Positions 5,873 to 16,791 are shown, counted from the first letter of the stretch. The stretch: 22,386 nucleotides of DNA from Candidatus Fraserbacteria bacterium (GCA_037442925.1 JBBIPG010000036.1:1-22386); one strand, 5' to 3'. Notes: generated from the sequence alone by a model not told the origin. Made by a program: numbers and translations.

Positions 5873-6970
5873 TCACGGGACGTTCGGCATCCTCACCGTA
5901 GTAGAAGAGGGAGTGTAATGGGTCAAGAGATCGTTACCAGGGTGTAGCGTCCAGCCGGTGGAGATCCGATCCAGCACAATCGGTGGAAGCAACGCAAACT
6001 CCGGGGGCACTTTCACTCCCAACTCTACCAGCTTGCGCCACGGACTCCTCCCGTCCATGCCCGCCCCCGTATGCGGCCGCTCCACGTTGTAATAGTAGAG
6101 CCACTGCGCCGCTCGCCGCAACAGCGCCCGCTCGTCTGGCAGCCGCTCCAGCAGGGGCAGGTAGAACTCCTCGTCGTCGGTGCGATGGCTGCGCTCCACC
6201 CGCCCGTTGTACCCCTTGCGTCCCAAGGGGAAGCGTACCAGCTCGGCCCCCAAGGGCCGGAAGAACTTCTGGTTGAGCCGCTCGATCTTGGGGAGACTCT
6301 CCCCGCCCCACTCGCTGCCCCAGTCCGTCTGCCACTGCAGCGTCTGCTTGAGCCCATGGGCCCGCAACCAGAACAAGACCAGCCCGGCAAAGCAGAGTGC
6401 GTTCGTCTGGGTGAGCTGATGGCTGTAGGCCAGAAAGCGCAGGCGGGTTCTCCCTTCCAGGAAGGTCCATTGGTAGCGAGGCAGGCGCCGCATCTGCAGG
6501 TGGTGGACCAAGCGAGACCCCAGCGTCTGCTCGTCACGGATGTCCTTGACGTCCACCTGAGCCAGAGCGAAGGGTTGCCCAGTCTCCCAAGCCCAGTGGG
6601 CGGGGTAACAGACCTTCCGTCGGCGTCGGGGCTGTACGAGGCCATGTCGGCGCAAGATGTGGCGGATGGTGTTGGGGGAGAGCCTCAGCTGCTGGCGGTG
6701 CCACAGCTCACGGCTGAGGCGGGCACGACCGTAGCCTGTGGACTCTCTCAGCTGGACCACCCGTTCCTCCACAGCGGTGGGGGTTTGCTTAGGGCAGGAG
6801 TGGGGACGGCGGCTGTGATCTTGCAACCCGGCTTCTCCTTCGCTCTGGAAGCGGCGCAGCCACTTGCGCACCACCTGACGGCTGGTCTGCCAGAGCTGAG
6901 CGGTGCGGGCGATGGAGCCCGTCTCTTGGTGGGTTCGCACCAGCTGTTGCCTTGCCTCTTGCGGGTTCAT
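5873..6970 (-). CDS. IS481-type DDE transposase (HTH + integrase core)
   Basis: VRKWLRRF...GL-D-SRRPH, QVDVKD, QTDWGSE, NGRVERSHRTD and YYNVERPH; ATG6970 follows AGGAAG. Confidence 0.9.
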   Translation of the reverse strand: MNPQEARQQLVRTHQETGSIARTAQLWQTSRQVVRKWLRRFQSEGEAGLQDHSRRPHSCPKQTPTAVEERVVQLRESTGYGRARLSRELWHRQQLRLSPNTIRHILRRHGLVQPRRRRKVCYPAHWAWETGQPFALAQVDVKDIRDEQTLGSRLVHHLQMRRLPRYQWTFLEGRTRLRFLAYSHQLTQTNALCFAGLVLFWLRAHGLKQTLQWQTDWGSEWGGESLPKIERLNQKFFRPLGAELVRFPLGRKGYNGRVERSHRTDDEEFYLPLLERLPDERALLRRAAQWLYYYNVERPHTGAGMDGRSPWRKLVELGVKVPPEFALLPPIVLDRISTGWTLHPGNDLLTHYTPSSTTVRMPNVP

Positions 6971-7110
6971 CGCGTACACTTCCTGGTACGTAAGATCCAA
7001 GGCGAGCATCCTCCTTGAACGCTCTTCCAGAGCCGTATCCAAGAGAGGATGCCTGCTTTCTTGAGCCAGCGCCACACTTCCCCCTGGTAACGATCTCTTG
7101 GCGCAGGGAC
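5914..7110 (-). mobile_element. IS481-family-like insertion sequence
   Basis: Perfect 19-bp inverted repeat CAAGAGATCGTTACCAGGG (5924-5942 and 7082-7100). TGT terminus at 5914; the other terminus is imprecise and no clear target duplication is seen. Higher GC than the flanks. Confidence 0.85.
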
Positions 7111-9996: not shown

Positions 9997-11622
9997 TCAG
10001 CCCATGTAGGGTCTGCGCCAGTCGCGAGCGGGAACGAGCGTCTCTTTCATGGTTCGTGGGCTGAGCCATCGTAGCAGATTCACCCACGAACCGGCTTTGT
10101 CGTTGGTGCCAGAGCGACGCGCACCTCCGAAGGGCTGCCGCCCCACGATGGCTCCCGTCGGCTTGTCGTTGATGTAAAAGTTGCCTGCGGCAAAGCGCAA
10201 CGCATTTTCAGCCTGCACAATGGCTTGTCTGTCTTGGGCGAAGATTGATCCCGTGAGTGCATACGGTGTGGAAGCATCACACAACTTGAGCACTTCGTCG
10301 TATGCCTCGTCCGGGTAGACATAAATCGTGAGCACGGGGCCGAAGATCTCCTCGGTCATAAGCTTGCCCTTGGGATCTTTGGTAAGCACTACGGTCGGTG
10401 TGACGAACCAGCCTTTCGAGTCATCGTACTCGCCGCCGTGCAGAATCGAGTATTCTTTGGGGTTCTTCTTCGCATACTCAATGTATGAGGCGATCTTCCG
10501 GTATGCCTCTTCTGTGATAACAGCACCCACGAAGACGCTTAAGTCTTCTATGGGGCCGACTTTGAGCTTGGCCAGTTCACTCTGCAAGCCCACTTTGATC
10601 TCTTCCCATAGGCTCTTCGGCACGTACATGCGCGAAGCGGCGGAGCACTTTTGGCCTTGATACTCAAACGCTCCTCGAATCGCGTTGGCGACAACCGTCT
10701 CAACATCCGCTGAGGCATGGACGAGTATGAAATCTTTGCCTCCGGTCTCGCCCACAATGCGCGGGAAGTTCTTATAGTTTGGAAGATTCATGCCAATGGT
10801 CTGCCACAGGCTCACGAGGGTCTCGTAGCTGCCGGTGAAGTGAAGCCCCGCGAAATCCGGGTGCTGGAGCACGACATCACTGTGTTGGCTGGAGAAGGGC
10901 ACAAAGTTGATCACGCCATCCGGAAGGCCCGCTTCACGCAGGACCTGCATGATGCGGAAGTTCGCCAGCGCCACAGAGCGCGCGGGTTTCCAAAGGGCCA
11001 CGTTGCCCACCATAGCAGGAGCTGTGGGAAGGTTGCCTCCGATGGAGTAGAAGTTGAAGGGTGGGACGGCCAGCACGAAGCCTTCCAGCGGTCGCCAGTC
11101 CAAGCGATTGATCTCACCGGGTGATTGAGCGGGTTGCTGCTCATACAAGAACTGCATGTAGTAGGCATTAAACCGCCAGAAGTCGATGAGTTCAATCAAG
11201 TCGATCTCGGCCTCAAAGGGTGTCTTGGATTGATTCATCATGATGGCCGCAAGATTCTCTATACGTCGCGGTCCGGCCAAAAGATCGGCTGCTCGGTGGA
11301 AGATGGCAGCTCGTTGATAGCCATCTAGAGAGGCCCACGTTCCCTGAGCTTCGAGTGCAGTATCAATGGCATTCTTGATTTCTTCTTTGCCTGCCATGTG
11401 AGCCCGTGCCAGCACTCTGCGGTGATCGTGAGGACAGCGGACTTCGTAGATGTCGCCCGTCTGCACAGGTCGGCCGTTGATGATGAGGGGGATTTCCTCC
11501 GTCCGTCGTTTGAGGGATTCAATCTCCTTTAGAAGCTGTTCGCGTTCGGGTGTGCCGGGAGCATAGGTGGGAATGCGATCCATTGCGTTTTTGGGTTGTT
11601 CCAGTTTCCATTTGGTCTCCAT
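9997..11622 (-). CDS. pruA: L-glutamate gamma-semialdehyde (P5C) dehydrogenase
   Basis: YAPGTPER, RPLEGFV, PFNF, FTGS, GETGGKDF, FEYQGQKCSA, EEIFGP and NDKPTGAIVGRQPFGG; start at ATG11622 (alternatively 11628). Confidence 0.95.
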   Translation of the reverse strand: METKWKLEQPKNAMDRIPTYAPGTPEREQLLKEIESLKRRTEEIPLIINGRPVQTGDIYEVRCPHDHRRVLARAHMAGKEEIKNAIDTALEAQGTWASLDGYQRAAIFHRAADLLAGPRRIENLAAIMMNQSKTPFEAEIDLIELIDFWRFNAYYMQFLYEQQPAQSPGEINRLDWRPLEGFVLAVPPFNFYSIGGNLPTAPAMVGNVALWKPARSVALANFRIMQVLREAGLPDGVINFVPFSSQHSDVVLQHPDFAGLHFTGSYETLVSLWQTIGMNLPNYKNFPRIVGETGGKDFILVHASADVETVVANAIRGAFEYQGQKCSAASRMYVPKSLWEEIKVGLQSELAKLKVGPIEDLSVFVGAVITEEAYRKIASYIEYAKKNPKEYSILHGGEYDDSKGWFVTPTVVLTKDPKGKLMTEEIFGPVLTIYVYPDEAYDEVLKLCDASTPYALTGSIFAQDRQAIVQAENALRFAAGNFYINDKPTGAIVGRQPFGGARRSGTNDKAGSWVNLLRWLSPRTMKETLVPARDWRRPYMG

Positions 11623-11685
11623 GTTCATCTCACCGGATCCAAAGTAACAGATCGCTATTCTAAAGGCAATAAGAACTCCTGTTCG

Positions 11686-11714
11686 TTGATAGGGTATGGG
11701 TAAGAGGGTAAAAT
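11686..11714 (+). promoter_or_regulatory. Sigma70-type promoter for the riboswitch-regulator transcript
   Basis: TTGATA (11686-11691), 17-nt spacer, TAAAAT (11709-11714). The predicted +1 near 11721 is just upstream of the aptamer. Confidence 0.7.
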
Positions 11715-11728
11715 AATGCTTGATAGCA

Positions 11729-11822
11729 ATATCCGATAAAGGCAAACCCGCTGAAAGGCGGGGACGCAAAGGCGCGGGCCTTGTGAAAGGGGCTAAACAT
11801 GGCCGCCGGGCTGCCGAAGATG
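11729..11822 (+). ncRNA. c-di-GMP-I (GEMM) riboswitch
   Basis: AAAGGCAAAC, stem CCCGCT-GAAA-GGCGGG, GACGCAAAG, then ...GCCGGGCTGCCGA, matching the GEMM-I consensus. G at the position equivalent to G20 favours c-di-GMP over c-AMP-GMP. Confidence 0.85.
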
Positions 11823-12542
11823 CAGCAAGTGTCCTGCACTGCCTGTGACTGCAGTTGCGTACTCACTCAAATTCCCCATAAGGAGCGAGTCCAGATCGCT
11901 TACCTGGTCGTCCACAAACTCTATACAAAGCGAGGAGTGATCTTTGAACAGGGAGCTGAGATCGACGGTTGTTATCTTCTCTGCCACGGCAAGGTCATAC
12001 TGGTGCGCTCCACGCGTGATGGTCGGAAGCAGATTCTAAGATTTCTTGGTGATGGTGATCTATTTGGGGAGTCAGGGTTTTCCGGTAAGCAAGTTTCCAG
12101 CGTGGAGGCCCAGGCTGTAACAGATTCGATGATCGCTCAGCTAAGAGCGGGAGACTATCAGTATCTGATGAAGCGATATCCTCCGATAGCATTCGACATT
12201 CAGAGGAGACTGAGCCAGGAAATCGACGAACTACGAATTCGTCTAACAGAGCGGTCATATCGAGGAGCGCGCGAGAGGCTGGTCAGACTACTGCTGTATT
12301 TGGCAGAGAAGTATGGATGCAAGACTGGTAGGCAAGCTCGTATCAAGCTAGAACTCACAGAGTCCGAGCTTGCCGAGATGTTGGGCAACTCTCGGGAGTG
12401 GATTTGCAAACAGATGAAGAAGTTGCAGAGGCAAGGATGGATCGCTTATCGACGGCGCAAGCTCGTGATTCTAGATGAGGCGGGCCTGCGGCAGTTTGTT
12501 ACCCCCCCCTGCATAAGCACTGTGCTACCCTCTCGCTCTTGA
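11799..12542 (+). CDS. Crp/Fnr-family transcriptional regulator with N-terminal Cys cluster (start 11799 or 11820)
   Basis: IFEQG, GDLFGE, RERLVRLLL-LA and the HTH LTESELAEMLGNSREWI; CTACDCSC at the N-terminus. Confidence 0.92.
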   Translation: MAAGLPKMQQVSCTACDCSCVLTQIPHKERVQIAYLVVHKLYTKRGVIFEQGAEIDGCYLLCHGKVILVRSTRDGRKQILRFLGDGDLFGESGFSGKQVSSVEAQAVTDSMIAQLRAGDYQYLMKRYPPIAFDIQRRLSQEIDELRIRLTERSYRGARERLVRLLLYLAEKYGCKTGRQARIKLELTESELAEMLGNSREWICKQMKKLQRQGWIAYRRRKLVILDEAGLRQFVTPPCISTVLPSRS

Positions 12543-12558
12543 ACAACCAACCAGGATC

Positions 12559-12601
12559 TGTGAACTAGTTCATAGGCGCGGGCAGGGTTCAATTATACAA
12601 T
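12559..12601 (+). promoter_or_regulatory. CRP-type box plus -10 element (class II promoter)
   Basis: TGTGA-ACTAGT-TCATA (12559-12574) and TACAAT (12596-12601). The box centre is at -41.5 if +1 is 12608. Confidence 0.8.
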
Positions 12602-12626
12602 CAACGGAGAAAGGGGGTGAAGAAGC

Positions 12627-12710
12627 ATGTACGAAAGGCCTAGAATCATGGAAATAAATGAACTGGCTCGTGGTTGTGGGACTGGAGGTTGTTGCGGAGG
12701 GAAAGGGTAA
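12627..12710 (+). CDS. RiPP precursor peptide, 27 aa: MYERPRIMEINELARGCGTGGCCGGKG
   Basis: GGGGGTGA RBS; YxxPxI leader motif; Cys/Gly-rich C-terminal core; lies directly upstream of PqqD and radical SAM genes. Confidence 0.88.
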   Translation: MYERPRIMEINELARGCGTGGCCGGKG

Positions 12711-12715
12711 GGATC

Positions 12716-12745
12716 TGAGGGAGGAATTACTTCCATCCTCCCTCA
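12716..12745 (+). terminator. Stem-loop after the precursor gene (attenuator or stabiliser)
   Basis: TGAGGGAGGA / TCCTCCCTCA perfect 10-bp stem, 10-nt loop, no U-tract. Confidence 0.65.
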
Positions 12746-12781: not shown

Positions 12782-13072
12782 ATGAGGCAGGTTGAGTTTG
12801 AATTGCAGCTCAAACCTAAGTTGAAGTCTAGCTGCAAATTAGTTGAAGAGGAATCTTACGGCTATGTCTACGACTATGACAATGAAAGTGTGTATGCCTT
12901 AAATAAAACTGGTCTGCAGATTGCAAAACTGTGCGATGGCAGTTTAAGCATCGAGAGCATTATTCGCATACTATGCGATAAATATCCCTCTATAGACCCG
13001 GAAGAGATCGCGAAAGATGTTATGTCGTTCATTGCAGATACAGTAACTGGGCGCAACGTGATGACTATATGA
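12782..13072 (+). CDS. PqqD-family RiPP recognition element (RRE)
   Basis: VYALNKTGLQIAKLCDGSLSIESIIRILCDKY...DVMSFI pattern; AAGGAG RBS; ATGA overlap with the next gene. Confidence 0.92.
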   Translation: MRQVEFELQLKPKLKSSCKLVEEESYGYVYDYDNESVYALNKTGLQIAKLCDGSLSIESIIRILCDKYPSIDPEEIAKDVMSFIADTVTGRNVMTI

Positions 13073-13314
13073 ATTCTCCTCCATTGGTAGCCTTATATCT
13101 GTACATAACCTGGCGATGTAACATGGCCTGTAAGCATTGTTGGGTGGTTGCAGGACCACCTCCTAGCGCTGAGAACGAGGTCACATTCGAAGACCTACAG
13201 AAGGCTATCCAAGATGCCAAGGAGTTAGGGTTAAAATGGATCAAAATCACAGGAGGCGAACCATATGTGAGGAGAAGATTGCTTCGTGCGTTATTAGGCC
13301 TAGGAACTGAATTA

Positions 13315-14170
13315 GAACTCATTTCAAAACCCTCCGCAGGGTGAGGAGGGCGCATGCCAGATGGAAGAAGCCGGCATAGGTCGTGATCAGCCGCTCATAG
13401 CGCACCACCAGCCGCCGAAAGTGCCCCAGCCAGGCAAAGGTGCGCTCCACAATCCATCGCCGCCGGTACCGCCGCAGCTTGCGCCCATCCTGGTCCGTAG
13501 CGCGGCGGTGGTTCCTGCGCGCGGGGATGATCGGCTCCGTCCCCCGCTGCTTGAGCCGCTGCCGCAACGGATTGCTGTCGTAGGCCCGATCGGCCACCAG
13601 TCGCTCCGGCCGCTTGCGGGGCCGACCCGGCTGGCCCGTCCTCCTCACCGCGACCGTGTCGAGCGTCTCCTCCAAGAGCGTGACCTCCGCCGGGGATGCC
13701 GAGTCCAAGTATGCTCCCAGCGGAGTACCCGCGCCATCGACCAGAACCATCCACTTCGTGCCCTTGCCCCGCTTGGTCTTGCCCACTTTCGACCCCCCTT
13801 TTTCGCCGGGGCGAAGCTGCCATCGGCGAAGCACTCATCCCAGCGGATCTTCTCTTGGTCGTTGAGTTGGGCCAGGAAAGCCCGCCAGAGCTCCAGCAGG
13901 ACGCCGTTCTCGGCCCACTCCCGCAGGCGGCGCCAGCAGGTGCTGGGGCTGGCATACCGCCGGGGCAATTCGCTCCAGTGGGCTCCGGTCCACAGGATCC
14001 AGAGAATGCCTTCCAAGCACCGGCGGTCATCGGCTCGGGGTCGGCCGCCCTTGGGCTTGGGTCGGGGCGGCGGTAGATGCACGCGAATCCTCTCCCACTG
14101 TTCATCGGTTAGGTTTCTCCAGGCCATGCCTCCAGTCTACTCACGCCTGGTGAGGTTTTGAAATCAGTTC
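13315..14170 (-). mobile_element. IS5-family element (IS427-like), 856 bp, TA target duplication
   Basis: Inverted repeats GAACTCATTTCAAAACC / GGTTTTGAAATCAGTTC (1 mismatch); TA at 13313-13314 and 14171-14172; much higher GC than the host gene. Confidence 0.93.
13319..14127 (-). CDS. IS5 transposase in two ORFs joined by a -1 frameshift
   Basis: OrfA: LTDEQWERI, W-ELPRRY, DGSF. OrfB: GKTKRGKGTK, ADRAYDS, RWIVERTFAWL. A5G6 slippery run at 13793-13803. Confidence 0.9.
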
Positions 14171-15053
14171 TAGGGATGAACTTAACTCTTGAAACCAATG
14201 GTTCCTTTCTCACCGAAGAAGAGGCAAGATTCCTCAGTGCTCAAAACATCAGAGAGGTAGGTATTAGCCTCGATTTCCCTGACGAAGCCAGGTATGAAGA
14301 GTTTCGCGGTCTGAAAAACTCCTTTGGTCGAGTTGTACGAGGCATGGAGTTATTGACCAAATACGGGGTACCTTGGGAAGCTATAATGACTGTGACGAAG
14401 ATAAATCGACATCAAATACCCGCAGTAGCTAAGTTGACCCTCGGTTTGGGCGGGAGAAATCTTAAGATTAACATTTGCATTCCTATGGGAAGAGCGAAGG
14501 AACTTGAAGAACAAGGAGAACTGCTTACACCATACGAATGTATTGAATTGGCTGAAGCTATTGCGGAGCTAGAGAAATCGTATCCGGAAAAGATAGCAAT
14601 GTCTATACCTTGGGCTCTCCCTGCATCCTTTGAAAACAAACCCTTTAGGATAGCACGTTCAGTTTGCCAGTACAAGAATTTACTCAGCATACTCCCATAT
14701 GGGGAAATCAGCTTATGCGGTTTAGGTAGGACCCATCCAGAGGTGGTTTTCGGCAACGTTCGCAAAGATGGTATCAAAGATTTGTGGATGAAGGGAATGG
14801 GATGTCTCAAAGCGTTGCGCAAACTAACTCCAAGCCACTTCAGAGGCGTATGTAACAAGTGTATGTTTAGAAAGTACTGTGCAAACTTGTGTCCGGCATT
14901 GGTATATGAAGCCTATGGAACATTTGAGGCATCTTACCCCCTATGTGAAGATCTTTATAGATGTGGCCTTTTCCCGACGAAGTATCTTGTGAGAGAGTGA
15001 GTGTAGGCAGTAGATTGTTGTGAATATGTCACAATTTGCTCTCGTTCCGAACC

Positions 15054-16268
15054 ATGATAAACAGAGCAAGAAGATTTCTGGAAGTGCTGCAATTATCATT
15101 ATCTGTACCCCGTAATTTCTTCTTGCTAGTGCCCACGTCTCTACTCATTGGGTTTGTCCTCGGGTACTTCATGTGGGCTCTTCCCCTCTTATTAATGAGA
15201 GCCAGTGGGGTCAATGTGCTCGGGGTCGTTTTCTCCCTCTCCTTCCTCTTGAACGCCCTCCTTTCGTTTTCTACGGGATTCGCCGCAGATGTTATGGGAA
15301 GGAAGGCCATTCTTGTCTTTGCCACAACTCTTTTTGCCCTCGGTGCCTTAATCATTTTCATGGCTCCGTACTGGCTTCTCCCGGTGGGGATCATCATAGT
15401 ATTTGCTTCATCCAGCTTGCACGGTCCTGCATTGGATGCCCTGCTAGCTGAATCCATGCAGGAAGAGGCAAGGGGCAAAGCCTTCGGAATCCTGCAGTTC
15501 AGCACGCTGATCGGACTCGCTCTCGGGTCCACCGTTCTAGGCATTGTCACACAATCGGCGGGGCTCAATCTTGCCTTGGGGATCACGGTCTTCCTAGCGC
15601 TCCTAGCTATACCTCTCCGAATGATGCTCATTGAGACCAAGACGCACAAAAGCAACGTGAGTGTGGCTTCAGCTTCCCCGGCGCTTCTCAGGAATGCTGT
15701 GTTGTTATTCTCCAACAAGGCACTCCTTCCCTTCAGTCTCATCCTGATTGGAGGCAGCTTAGTTAGCTGGATCATGCAGTTTATGCCAGGCTATCTATCC
15801 GAGGTGTTAGGATTAGGCGAGAGTGTAATAGGACTAGCGTACTCCCTGACTATGATAAGCCAGGCTATAGGCCAGCCTGTAGCGGGCTGGTTCTCTGACC
15901 GGTATGGTGCTAAAAGAGCACTCATAGTCAATAAAGTAGGATCTGCCATCTCTCTCATATTATTTGTTCTTCTTTCAACTGTAAATCCTATTCTAGCCCT
16001 GGCGTTCCCTTTCGTAGTTGGTGCTTGGCTCAGTGCCTTTAACAATGTGGGATGGTCTTTGTATATTGCCCAAAACACAGATGAGGACCACCGCGGCACG
16101 ATCTATGGGAGCGCGAGTGGCTTAGAGGCGATCTCCCAGGCGCCCGCTCCCATATTGGGTGCTCTATTATGGCAGATCGAACCGCGGCTGGTTTTCGTAG
16201 GGACTGCCATAGGATGGTTTGCTCTAATGCCGTTACTGATGCGACTTAGAGATGAGGGACATGCTTGA
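15054..16268 (+). CDS. MFS transporter (probable peptide export or immunity)
   Basis: About 12 TM segments, motif A in both halves (GFAADVMGRK, GWFSDRYGAK). Start uncertain (15036 or 15054). Confidence 0.88.
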   Translation: MINRARRFLEVLQLSLSVPRNFFLLVPTSLLIGFVLGYFMWALPLLLMRASGVNVLGVVFSLSFLLNALLSFSTGFAADVMGRKAILVFATTLFALGALIIFMAPYWLLPVGIIIVFASSSLHGPALDALLAESMQEEARGKAFGILQFSTLIGLALGSTVLGIVTQSAGLNLALGITVFLALLAIPLRMMLIETKTHKSNVSVASASPALLRNAVLLFSNKALLPFSLILIGGSLVSWIMQFMPGYLSEVLGLGESVIGLAYSLTMISQAIGQPVAGWFSDRYGAKRALIVNKVGSAISLILFVLLSTVNPILALAFPFVVGAWLSAFNNVGWSLYIAQNTDEDHRGTIYGSASGLEAISQAPAPILGALLWQIEPRLVFVGTAIGWFALMPLLMRLRDEGHA

Positions 16269-16791
16269 AAGGACTTCGCAAAGATTCAAATACATGGATT
16301 ACGTCACGCCGGAAGATGACTGTGTTAAAGAGATAGCCACCAGGATTGTTAAGTCTAAAGGGAGACGTGTCGAAAAATCGACGATCGTCGAACTCGTCTT
16401 CTCTTGGATTAAGAATAACATACTACCAGAGGGAAGCAGCCCAGAAAAAGATCTGCGCCCATGTGTGACTTTAAGGAAGCGTCAAGGTACGTGTTTGGCG
16501 CAGTCGATTCTGACAGCATCTCTCTTGCGCGCCTTATCATTTAGTGAAAATGAGGTGTGGGTTGCCGTCACTCTGCATCGTGGAGAAAGCCCTTTTGAAG
16601 CGATGCACGCAATAGTCATCCTGCAAACGAGTGACAAGGGGAAAGTCATAGCATTGGATACCACAGAATCCCTTCTTGAAGTGACGACTTTAAATGAGAT
16701 AATTCAGACGAATACTATATTGCTCATGTTTAATGATAAGTTTGCTTGGGTCCCCAAACAGCCACTTCATAGTTCACAATGTGATGCTTGA
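16261..16791 (+). CDS. Transglutaminase-like cysteine protease (candidate leader peptidase)
   Basis: VFSWIKNNI and a putative triad in GTCLAQSIL-ASLLRA (Cys), HAIV (His), LDTT (Asp); overlaps the MFS stop; GAGGG RBS. Confidence 0.82.
   Translation: MLERTSQRFKYMDYVTPEDDCVKEIATRIVKSKGRRVEKSTIVELVFSWIKNNILPEGSSPEKDLRPCVTLRKRQGTCLAQSILTASLLRALSFSENEVWVAVTLHRGESPFEAMHAIVILQTSDKGKVIALDTTESLLEVTTLNEIIQTNTILLMFNDKFAWVPKQPLHSSQCDA

Follow-up and report, generated by a model that had tools for sequence, protein, structure and literature searches.

We analyzed a 22,386-nt stretch of DNA from a Candidatus Fraserbacteria bacterium, referred to here as the window. On its plus strand, a predicted sigma70-type promoter (11686..11714; TTGATA-17-TAAAAT, +1 near 11721) precedes a c-di-GMP-I aptamer (11730..11822), whose P1 3' strand runs into an AUG at 11820-11822, and the gene for a Crp/Fnr-family regulator (11820..12542). 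The promoter is weak evidence alone, as 3 such sites were found vs. 1.8 ± 1.4 in shuffled sequences; a sigma70-type promoter is similarly placed in the orthologous cassettes. The aptamer, identified with covariance models, is the sole RNA found by Rfam in the window: it matched RF03167 at 11732-11819 (66.5 bits vs. a gathering score of 59, E = 5.5e-14) and RF01051 at 11731-11818 (65.4 bits vs. a cut-off of 35). The regulator has 240 residues when started at 11820 and 247 when started at 11799. Its cNMP_binding (PF00027) and HTH_Crp_2 (PF13545) domains scored above their cut-offs, and both a structural model and a fold search backed a Crp/Fnr fold. Sixteen nucleotides past the stop codon lies a predicted operator, TGTGAACTAGTTCATA (12559..12574), and then a predicted cargo promoter (12573..12601, plus strand) with TACAAT at 12596-12601, a +1 near 12608, and TAGGCG (3/6) at the -35 position, which shares 2 nt with the box. 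Reckoned from the +1 implied by TACAAT, the center of the box (12566.5) falls at -41.5. A first-pass annotation had proposed the promoter, a GEMM-I aptamer (along with the covariance-model search for it), the Crp/Fnr gene, and a CRP-like box 16 nt after the stop, centered at -41.5 and accompanied by a poor -35; all of these held up. An antisense promoter-like match (12621-12592) was treated as chance.

The cargo is a predicted RiPP operon, also on the plus strand. Its first gene (12627..12710) would encode a 27-aa precursor with a Cys/Gly-rich C-terminus; it matched no family, and similar precursors occur in genomes G051, G055, and G056. A 10-bp hairpin behind it (12716..12745, plus strand) is a possible mRNA-stability or partial-termination element. 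Profile matches identified a PqqD-family peptide chaperone (RRE; 12782..13072) and, beyond a radical SAM/SPASM maturase gene (13069..15000), an MFS transporter that is a predicted exporter (15036..16268). The last gene (16252..16791) encodes a protein with a weak transglutaminase-like domain (DUF553, below cut-off). The maturase is ScmF-like, below the family cut-off. As in SynChlorMet, there are a PqqD protein and a small precursor, and the best NCBIfam matches of the maturase's 3' piece and of an intact homologue, P0026, are to SynChlorMet families (TIGR04251 ScmF, TIGR04248 ScmD). Unlike SynChlorMet, the operon has a single radical SAM enzyme, an MFS exporter, and a precursor without a family, and P0026 scored 188 vs. 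a cut-off of 400. A SynChlorMet cassette was rejected, as ScmF, ScmE, and ScmD were not above their cut-offs. Five maturase homologues (P0027, P0029, P0030, P0031, P0033) carry a C-terminal HTH_17 domain and are possibly self-regulating RiPP enzymes. A scan of viral contigs with a maturase homologue returned no match.

The first-pass annotation did not mention that the maturase gene is split after codon 82 by an 856-bp IS5-family element (13315..14170, minus strand). The element is bounded by inverted repeats of 17-19 nt, shows a TA target duplication, and is present as a single copy in the assembly. The two halves of the maturase abut when aligned with intact homologues of 357-363 aa. In run X1, which may be the source sample and whose cover ends at about 14320, a single contig connects 13312 directly with 14171 (short side of 27 letters, 85% likeness), skipping 858 bases (the IS plus TA) at a depth of 12.8 vs. 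17.9 in the flank. Because this contig joins the flanks without the IS, an IS-free maturase allele likely coexists with the split one. A 392-nt contig covering 12644-13035 (precursor and PqqD genes) with 1 difference was found in runs X2 and X3, labeled hot springs metagenome.

Elsewhere in the window, ~44 codons are duplicated exactly inside a methyltransferase ORF (2-721), which may reflect an assembly artefact; an IS481-like transposase gene lies at 5873-7075 (minus strand); and a divergent gene for P5C dehydrogenase (TIGR01236, above cut-off) occupies 9997-11625 (minus strand). A longer, TTG-started version of the last ORF overlaps the aptamer and is probably a mechanical over-extension.

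The regulator, its predicted operator, and the predicted cargo promoter

What kind of Crp/Fnr protein is the regulator? Residues R199, E200, and K204 of its recognition helix correspond to CRP residues 180, 181, and 185, the numbering used below. The phosphate-binding Arg of the CRP cAMP pocket aligns to a Val, on which ground cAMP was rejected as the effector, and the CRP equivalog score is 73.5 vs. 266 bits. The FNR family model (NF008365) gave 56 bits vs. a cut-off of 228. Three N-terminal Cys residues, as in FNR proper, are present, but position 180 is Arg rather than Val, and there is no TTGAT box. The N-terminal motif is CxxCxCxC (candidate ligands C13, C16, and C18/C20); a CxxC-xn-C cluster, found in most clade members, is reminiscent of the Fe-S oxygen sensors FNR and FnrN, and the related paralogues L215 and L218 precede cytochrome genes. 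Unlike FNR, the window regulator has Ala, and the clade Ala or Gly, at the position of the fourth FNR ligand (C122); Cys62, kept in 15 of 16 members, may substitute for it. On these scores and residues, the regulator is a Crp/Fnr-family protein that is neither CRP proper nor FNR proper. The AlphaFold model is unreliable at the N-terminus (pLDDT 31-47) and uninformative on the Cys cluster. Whether this cluster would provide a second input, either redox or Fe-S (or metal), is in our estimation an evenly balanced proposition.

Near the end of the gene, a poly-C run (12502-12511 in the window, and also in orthologues) encodes the C-terminal Pro-Pro codons. Its length varies, shifting the stop relative to the boxes; the regulator ORF of some copies extends through the distal box described below.

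By itself, the window box is unremarkable, because the 2.07-Mb host genome (G000) contains 70 sites within one mismatch of TGTGA-N6-TCACA, and TAnnnT lies 20-22 nt downstream of 7 of 140 strand-wise CRP-like sites. No other copy of TGTGAACTAGTTCATA within 2 mismatches exists in the genome. The remarkable feature is the conservation of the box in orthologues. We compared 12 loci having both the helix and a proximal box; left out of this count were L060 and L064 (same promoter as L052), the first copy in L054 and L067 (helix, no box found), and L058, L059, and L191 (no helix). At all 12 loci, 20-22 nt separate the end of the box from TAnnnT, which places its center at -40.5 to -42.5, and the last two box bases begin the -35 position. 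The conserved core of the box is TGAA-N4-TTCA. A second, distal box lies upstream in 11 of 11 orthologues, at 23 bp in nine and 17 bp in two; it is absent from the window. A center at -41.5 is the class II CRP/FNR position (PMC5957442), and the class II geometry claimed for the window is thus kept across the set. We consider it likely that the regulator activates the cargo promoter rather than represses it.

The main rival reading, which we judge unlikely, is that the regulator would repress by covering the -35, such that c-di-GMP, by a double negative, would switch the cargo ON. The box indeed overlaps the -35 by 2 nt, tandem sites like those created by the distal box are frequent in repression, and the orthologues combine a TAnnnT -10, at normal spacing, with a near-consensus -35 (5/6; TAGACA in 9 of 11), so that the cargo promoter may not need an activator. 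Against repression stand the poor -35 hexamers of the window, L215, and L218 (TAGGCG, TAGCCT, and TAGCCC, respectively) and the constant position of the box center at the 12 loci, a constraint that is typical for class II activation and unneeded for steric repression. Activation is the reading with which we proceed.

CRP-like palindromes also lie behind three other Crp genes in the host genome (C31:678-1500, C2:19036-19860, and C46:17092-17890), at 17, 106, and 65 nt past their respective stops; among the C31 cargo are secreted and solute-binding-like proteins. At C1:46916-46931, an intergenic box on the minus strand, TGTGAACTCTTTCAAA, has TATGAT 22 nt downstream and faces a convergent PIN-type gene; it may be a chance occurrence.

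The cassette in related genomes

Among 184 genomes from the phylum Bipolaricaulota, nine carry members of the regulator clade: the host genome and 8 of the 18 genomes of family f5, with none in the 8 genomes of the host's own family. Additional clade copies were taken from metagenome contigs, and the closest homologues are named Candidatus Acetothermia. This patchy distribution and the low GC content of the precursor-maturase genes (44% vs. 56% for the genome) suggest horizontal acquisition. Compared across these loci, the conserved unit is a promoter, an aptamer, a Crp/Fnr gene, a box, and an exchangeable cargo. The cargo at the 12 loci comprises radical-SAM clusters of unrelated subfamilies (six), secreted or lipoprotein-like proteins (four), an M1 peptidase (one), and surface proteins (one). 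Because the cargo differs, the regulator appears dedicated to a position, whatever follows it, and not to RiPPs. The first-pass annotation had described a dedicated activator of the RiPP operon under c-di-GMP; its pairing of the regulator with the adjacent box is borne out by covariation (see below), and the idea of a RiPP-specific activator was rejected. At L062 (1122-2249), the cargo protein has a C-terminal pretoxin-HINT domain, and its gene adjoins a signal peptidase-like gene.

A box pattern run across the 184 genomes gave 11 matches vs. 4 for a reversed control; as the pattern was built from the cassette loci, its fit to them is circular. The search added three genomes: L191 is a cassette from which the HTH is deleted, L193 has the two boxes but lacks the gene, and L188 has no regulator nearby.

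For 14 clade copies, the 5' DNA could be inspected: a full aptamer match is present in 11 (7 besides the window's over the gathering score, the others by E-value), a remnant with P3 deleted in one, and no match in two. Half of these 14 copies are broken by frameshifts, stops, or deletions, some of which may be assembly errors. Four paralogous loci (L202-L205) retain aptamer remnants only. In these and in L058, P3 is deleted (in L058, between two CAAAG repeats), and a G-rich SD from P2 now fronts the regulator; such loci are possibly natural constitutive mutants.

These losses raise the question of whether the cascade has decayed or become irrelevant in this strain, with a vestigial riboswitch or a silent operon. 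The IS5 insertion in the maturase, the broken clade copies, the remnants in L058 and L202-L205, and the window's own lack of a distal box and weak P1 could all be read in this manner. Yet the window regulator ORF is intact, its aptamer keeps the contact bases and passes both Rfam cut-offs, and the joint in run X1, at its depth of 12.8 vs. 17.9, is free of the IS. We regard decay as improbable.

Does the adjacent regulator read the box? Over the 12 loci, helix residue 180 and proximal box position 2 change together: all five Arg loci have G, and all seven Pro loci have T (Fisher p = 0.0013, a value that ignores kinship). A perfect Arg/Pro split occurs in 1 of 259 variable coding columns (372 linked coding bases), that column being the middle base of codon 180, and in 1 of 42 variable promoter columns (of 50 promoter columns). 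The symmetric base of the distal box splits as well, with C in 4 of 4 Arg loci and A in 7 of 7 Pro loci; its left half fits the code in 9 of 11, L061 and L054b disagreeing. The right half of the proximal box is invariant, as part of the -35. Val181, present at two loci through one event, is accompanied in both by A at box position 4 and T at position 13. The earlier statement that an RE pair reads TGTGA applies to only 5 of the 12 loci; what is conserved is the core TGAA-N4-TTCA.

These pairs fall within the CRP/FNR 180/181/185 code (Desai et al. 2009, PMC2677863), three elements of which (Pro180-T5, Arg180-G5, and Val181-A7) recur as natural cassette variants. In that study, engineered E. coli CRP with Pro180 was active at a T5 site but not at the wild-type one, whereas Val181, selected on A/T at position 7, mainly loses discrimination and did not activate its site. 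The code was previously seen across distant subfamilies and in engineered mutants; here, it switches within one clade (59-90% coding-DNA identity), beside its own operator.

The tree of these loci is poorly resolved, with three changes at 180, one independent pair on strongly supported branches, and one change at 181; with so few changes, significance is out of reach of a sign test. L061 and L063, which share 90% identity across this region, differ in both helix and box. Hitch-hiking by linkage is not supported by these comparisons as the cause of the covariation at 180; it may be the cause at 181, where 8 coding columns share the same single split. Three further arrangements broaden the picture. 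L166 has the helix SHRATVN, tandem TGTCG boxes, and an intact riboswitch, with the cassette layout kept. L215 and L218 have the helix TREA and TGTGAA-N4-TTCATA with the same promoter layout, before multi-CxxCH cytochrome genes. L223 and L224, which are outside the clade and at which no riboswitch was found, have the helix SRQ and GTTC boxes, behind which lies a precursor of the window's family; their R180/Q181 goes with T, breaking a simple Arg-to-G rule.

Because box and helix covary, the box is very probably the cognate predicted site of the adjacent regulator. A global CRP-type protein could conceivably read it instead, leaving the neighboring riboswitch-regulator gene incidental: the host genome has 12 Crp-type HTH matches over cut-off, six other paralogues have an RE helix, and 70 CRP-like boxes are present. 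However, the box changes with the helix of the adjacent gene over the 12 loci and no linked column does, and the TGAAnTAnTTCA core occurs at just two places in the genome, the other inside a coding region. We thus hold a global reader to be very improbable and retain the adjacent regulator in this role.

The aptamer and the start codons

The window aptamer has the P2 GNRA loop, the P3 receptor, and a C44-G83 pair, with one mismatch at the P3 base; G20, C44, A47, G83, and C92 lie at 11741, 11765, 11768, 11805, and 11814, respectively. The ligand-contact bases G20, A47, and C92 are kept in all 13 tabulated cassette aptamers, and the tertiary pair 44:83 covaries (U-A in 10, C-G in 2, and C-A in 1 of 13). 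G20 and C92 contact c-di-GMP, and A20 marks c-AMP-GMP switches (PMC6140456); given the retained contacts and the covarying pair, the c-di-GMP pocket is apparently maintained. By covariance score, contact bases, and its P2, P3, and tertiary-pair features, the aptamer is of the c-di-GMP-I class, and we have high confidence that it would bind c-di-GMP. The c-AMP-GMP (GEMM-Ib) signature A20 is not found in any of the 13, and a ligand such as c-AMP-GMP or another nucleotide is scarcely credible: although orthologous aptamers depart from consensus at positions 22, 23, and 43, G20 is universal among them, whereas c-AMP-GMP switches have A20 (PMC6140456), and the single cyclase of the host has a GGDEF motif.

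The signaling context is in keeping with c-di-GMP as the ligand. The host genome encodes 1 GGDEF protein and 2 HD-GYP-type proteins, has 17 RF01051 matches, and gave zero matches for EAL. Of 35 genomes in the order, 33 carry the riboswitch; a GGDEF match is likewise present in 33. A scan of 20 loci holding other Crp paralogues gave no riboswitch match. The host genome does contain a second riboswitch-Crp gene (C8:1-676, minus strand; L226), which has the helix HTYQRVN and starts at the AUG of the P3 receptor; the gene is cut by the contig end, and the area for a box search is lost.

The regulator ORF has two candidate AUGs, at 11799 and 11820, in or against the aptamer, a point missing from the first-pass annotation. 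An AUG occupies aptamer positions 98-100 in 13 of 13 cassette aptamers, which in the window is AUG 11820. Of the 12 aptamers outside the window, 11 form 7-8 of the 8 pairs of P1, with the helix extending into the AUG; in L166, P1 shows a compensatory change from U-A to C-G. The window's P1 is weak (duplex, -1.5 kcal/mol), consisting of 2 pairs, a bulge, and further pairs that cover the AUG. No clear SD precedes AUG 11820. The alternative start (11786..11801, plus strand) comprises an SD-like AAAGGGG in loop L3 and the in-frame AUG 11799 inside the P3 tetraloop receptor, buried in the folded aptamer. As short-P3 orthologues lack AUG 11799, 11820 is the better conserved start. We considered whether its role in the tetraloop receptor alone explains the conservation of AUG 11799; judging from the SD bias (13/18 vs. 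9/48), this codon may still be a start.

How would ligand binding affect the use of these codons? The junction between aptamer and gene leaves no room for a terminator. P1 forms on ligand binding and is the switching element of the translational Vc2 riboswitch (PMC9262584). Because both starts need the 3' half of the aptamer unfolded and the ligand stabilizes P1, translational repression by c-di-GMP is likely. We infer that c-di-GMP quite probably turns the regulator OFF by hiding its start codon. The ligand-free minimum-free-energy structure is an alternative fold, not the aptamer, and pairs part of the L3 SD.

The placement of start codons is not peculiar to the cassette. Order-wide, an ATG lies within 15 nt after C93 in 39 of 66 aptamers vs. 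159 of 1350 control windows (12%), and an ATG or GTG is exactly at 98-100 in 23 of the 66. These 66 are a pattern-found subset (fetched loci plus the host genome) of about 170 Rfam matches, with 3 doubtful cases and 1 duplicate dropped, and kin are counted as if independent. On these sequence counts, an AUG-burying design is common in the order.

Variations on this design were seen at several loci. At L150 (174-1431; G005:C9), the receptor AUG of an intact aptamer, behind AAAGGAG, is the first codon for a 399-aa secreted protein, and here the gene clearly begins inside the aptamer. At two loci of the host genome (C40:8240-8330, minus strand; C58:880-971, plus strand), a leader ORF, 44 or 37 codons long, begins at a P3-receptor AUG that follows an SD-like loop. 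The stop of each leader overlaps the start of the main gene (ATGA), and the lengths differ by 21 nt with the frame kept, which suggests riboswitch control via translational coupling. A similar leader in C26 ends at the SD. Long repetitive P3 inserts (GACTC/GAGTC units) occur in the host aptamers at C34:181-326 and C26:3360-3524, and related genomes contain tandem or nested c-di-GMP-I aptamers (L130:2270-2430, L162:902-1060, L126:1510-1690).

The proposed circuit and its significance

We propose the following sequence of events. At low c-di-GMP, the leader would be open and the regulator made; the regulator, its Cys sensor permitting, would bind the box and recruit RNA polymerase to the -41.5 promoter in the style of CRP class II. 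The peptide operon would then be transcribed, and the predicted output is peptide or secretion cargo at low c-di-GMP. At high c-di-GMP, the aptamer would fold over the AUG, and the operon would be silent. A negative sign is likely because c-di-GMP would hide the start codon. On balance, we favor this chain as a whole, in which c-di-GMP blocks translation of the regulator and the regulator activates the predicted RiPP operon.

The closest known system is Vc2-TfoY of Vibrio cholerae, in which a transcription factor is kept under translational restriction by a c-di-GMP-I riboswitch, with type VI secretion as an output at low c-di-GMP (PMC7371385). The cassette is predicted to be similar in both respects, with a riboswitch limiting a transcription factor and an antagonism-type output at low c-di-GMP. 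Unlike the cassette regulator, TfoY lies outside the Crp/Fnr family and has distant loci as its targets; the cassette holds regulator, operator, and exchangeable cargo in one unit. Vc2 reportedly masks an RBS distant from the aptamer (Inuzuka 2018), whereas in the cassette the AUG itself lies in P1. The cassette also resembles E. coli CRP/FNR class II promoters in its Crp/Fnr fold and in a site at -41.5 that overlaps the -35 (PMC5957442). It differs from E. coli CRP/FNR in that its regulator lacks the cAMP-binding Arg, the core is TGAA-N4-TTCA, the regulon is local, and activation is predicted.

A literature search, mainly of the main texts of open-access papers, found no description of the cassette, nor any paper that mentions c-di-GMP or riboswitches together with the names of the phylum; within this scope, the cassette may still have been described elsewhere, and supplementary tables of riboswitch gene contexts may list such loci. 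The logic of riboswitch, transcription factor, and antagonism genes is already known from Vc2-TfoY, and the surprise is limited by this precedent.

More tentatively, and with less than even confidence, we suggest that Bipolaricaulota may possess a family of self-contained, orthogonal gates, each comprising a promoter, a c-di-GMP OFF riboswitch with its AUG in P1, an Fe-S/redox-sensing Crp/Fnr protein, tandem cognate operators, and a class II promoter, which would capture unrelated RiPP or secretion cargo. Paired changes in helix and operator would avoid cross-talk, and peptide weapons would be made only at low c-di-GMP AND the right redox state; order-wide, the aptamer would be its own expression platform, sometimes via a coupled leader ORF.

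What the locus offers is a regulatory circuit readable from sequence in an uncultured phylum. If our reading is true, the cassettes would repeat the CRP 180/181 code naturally inside a single clade and could supply orthogonal regulator/operator pairs, and the aptamers would represent a c-di-GMP-I riboswitch design without a separate expression platform. RiPP clusters would then be under c-di-GMP control of a predictable sign, which would give hints for waking such clusters.
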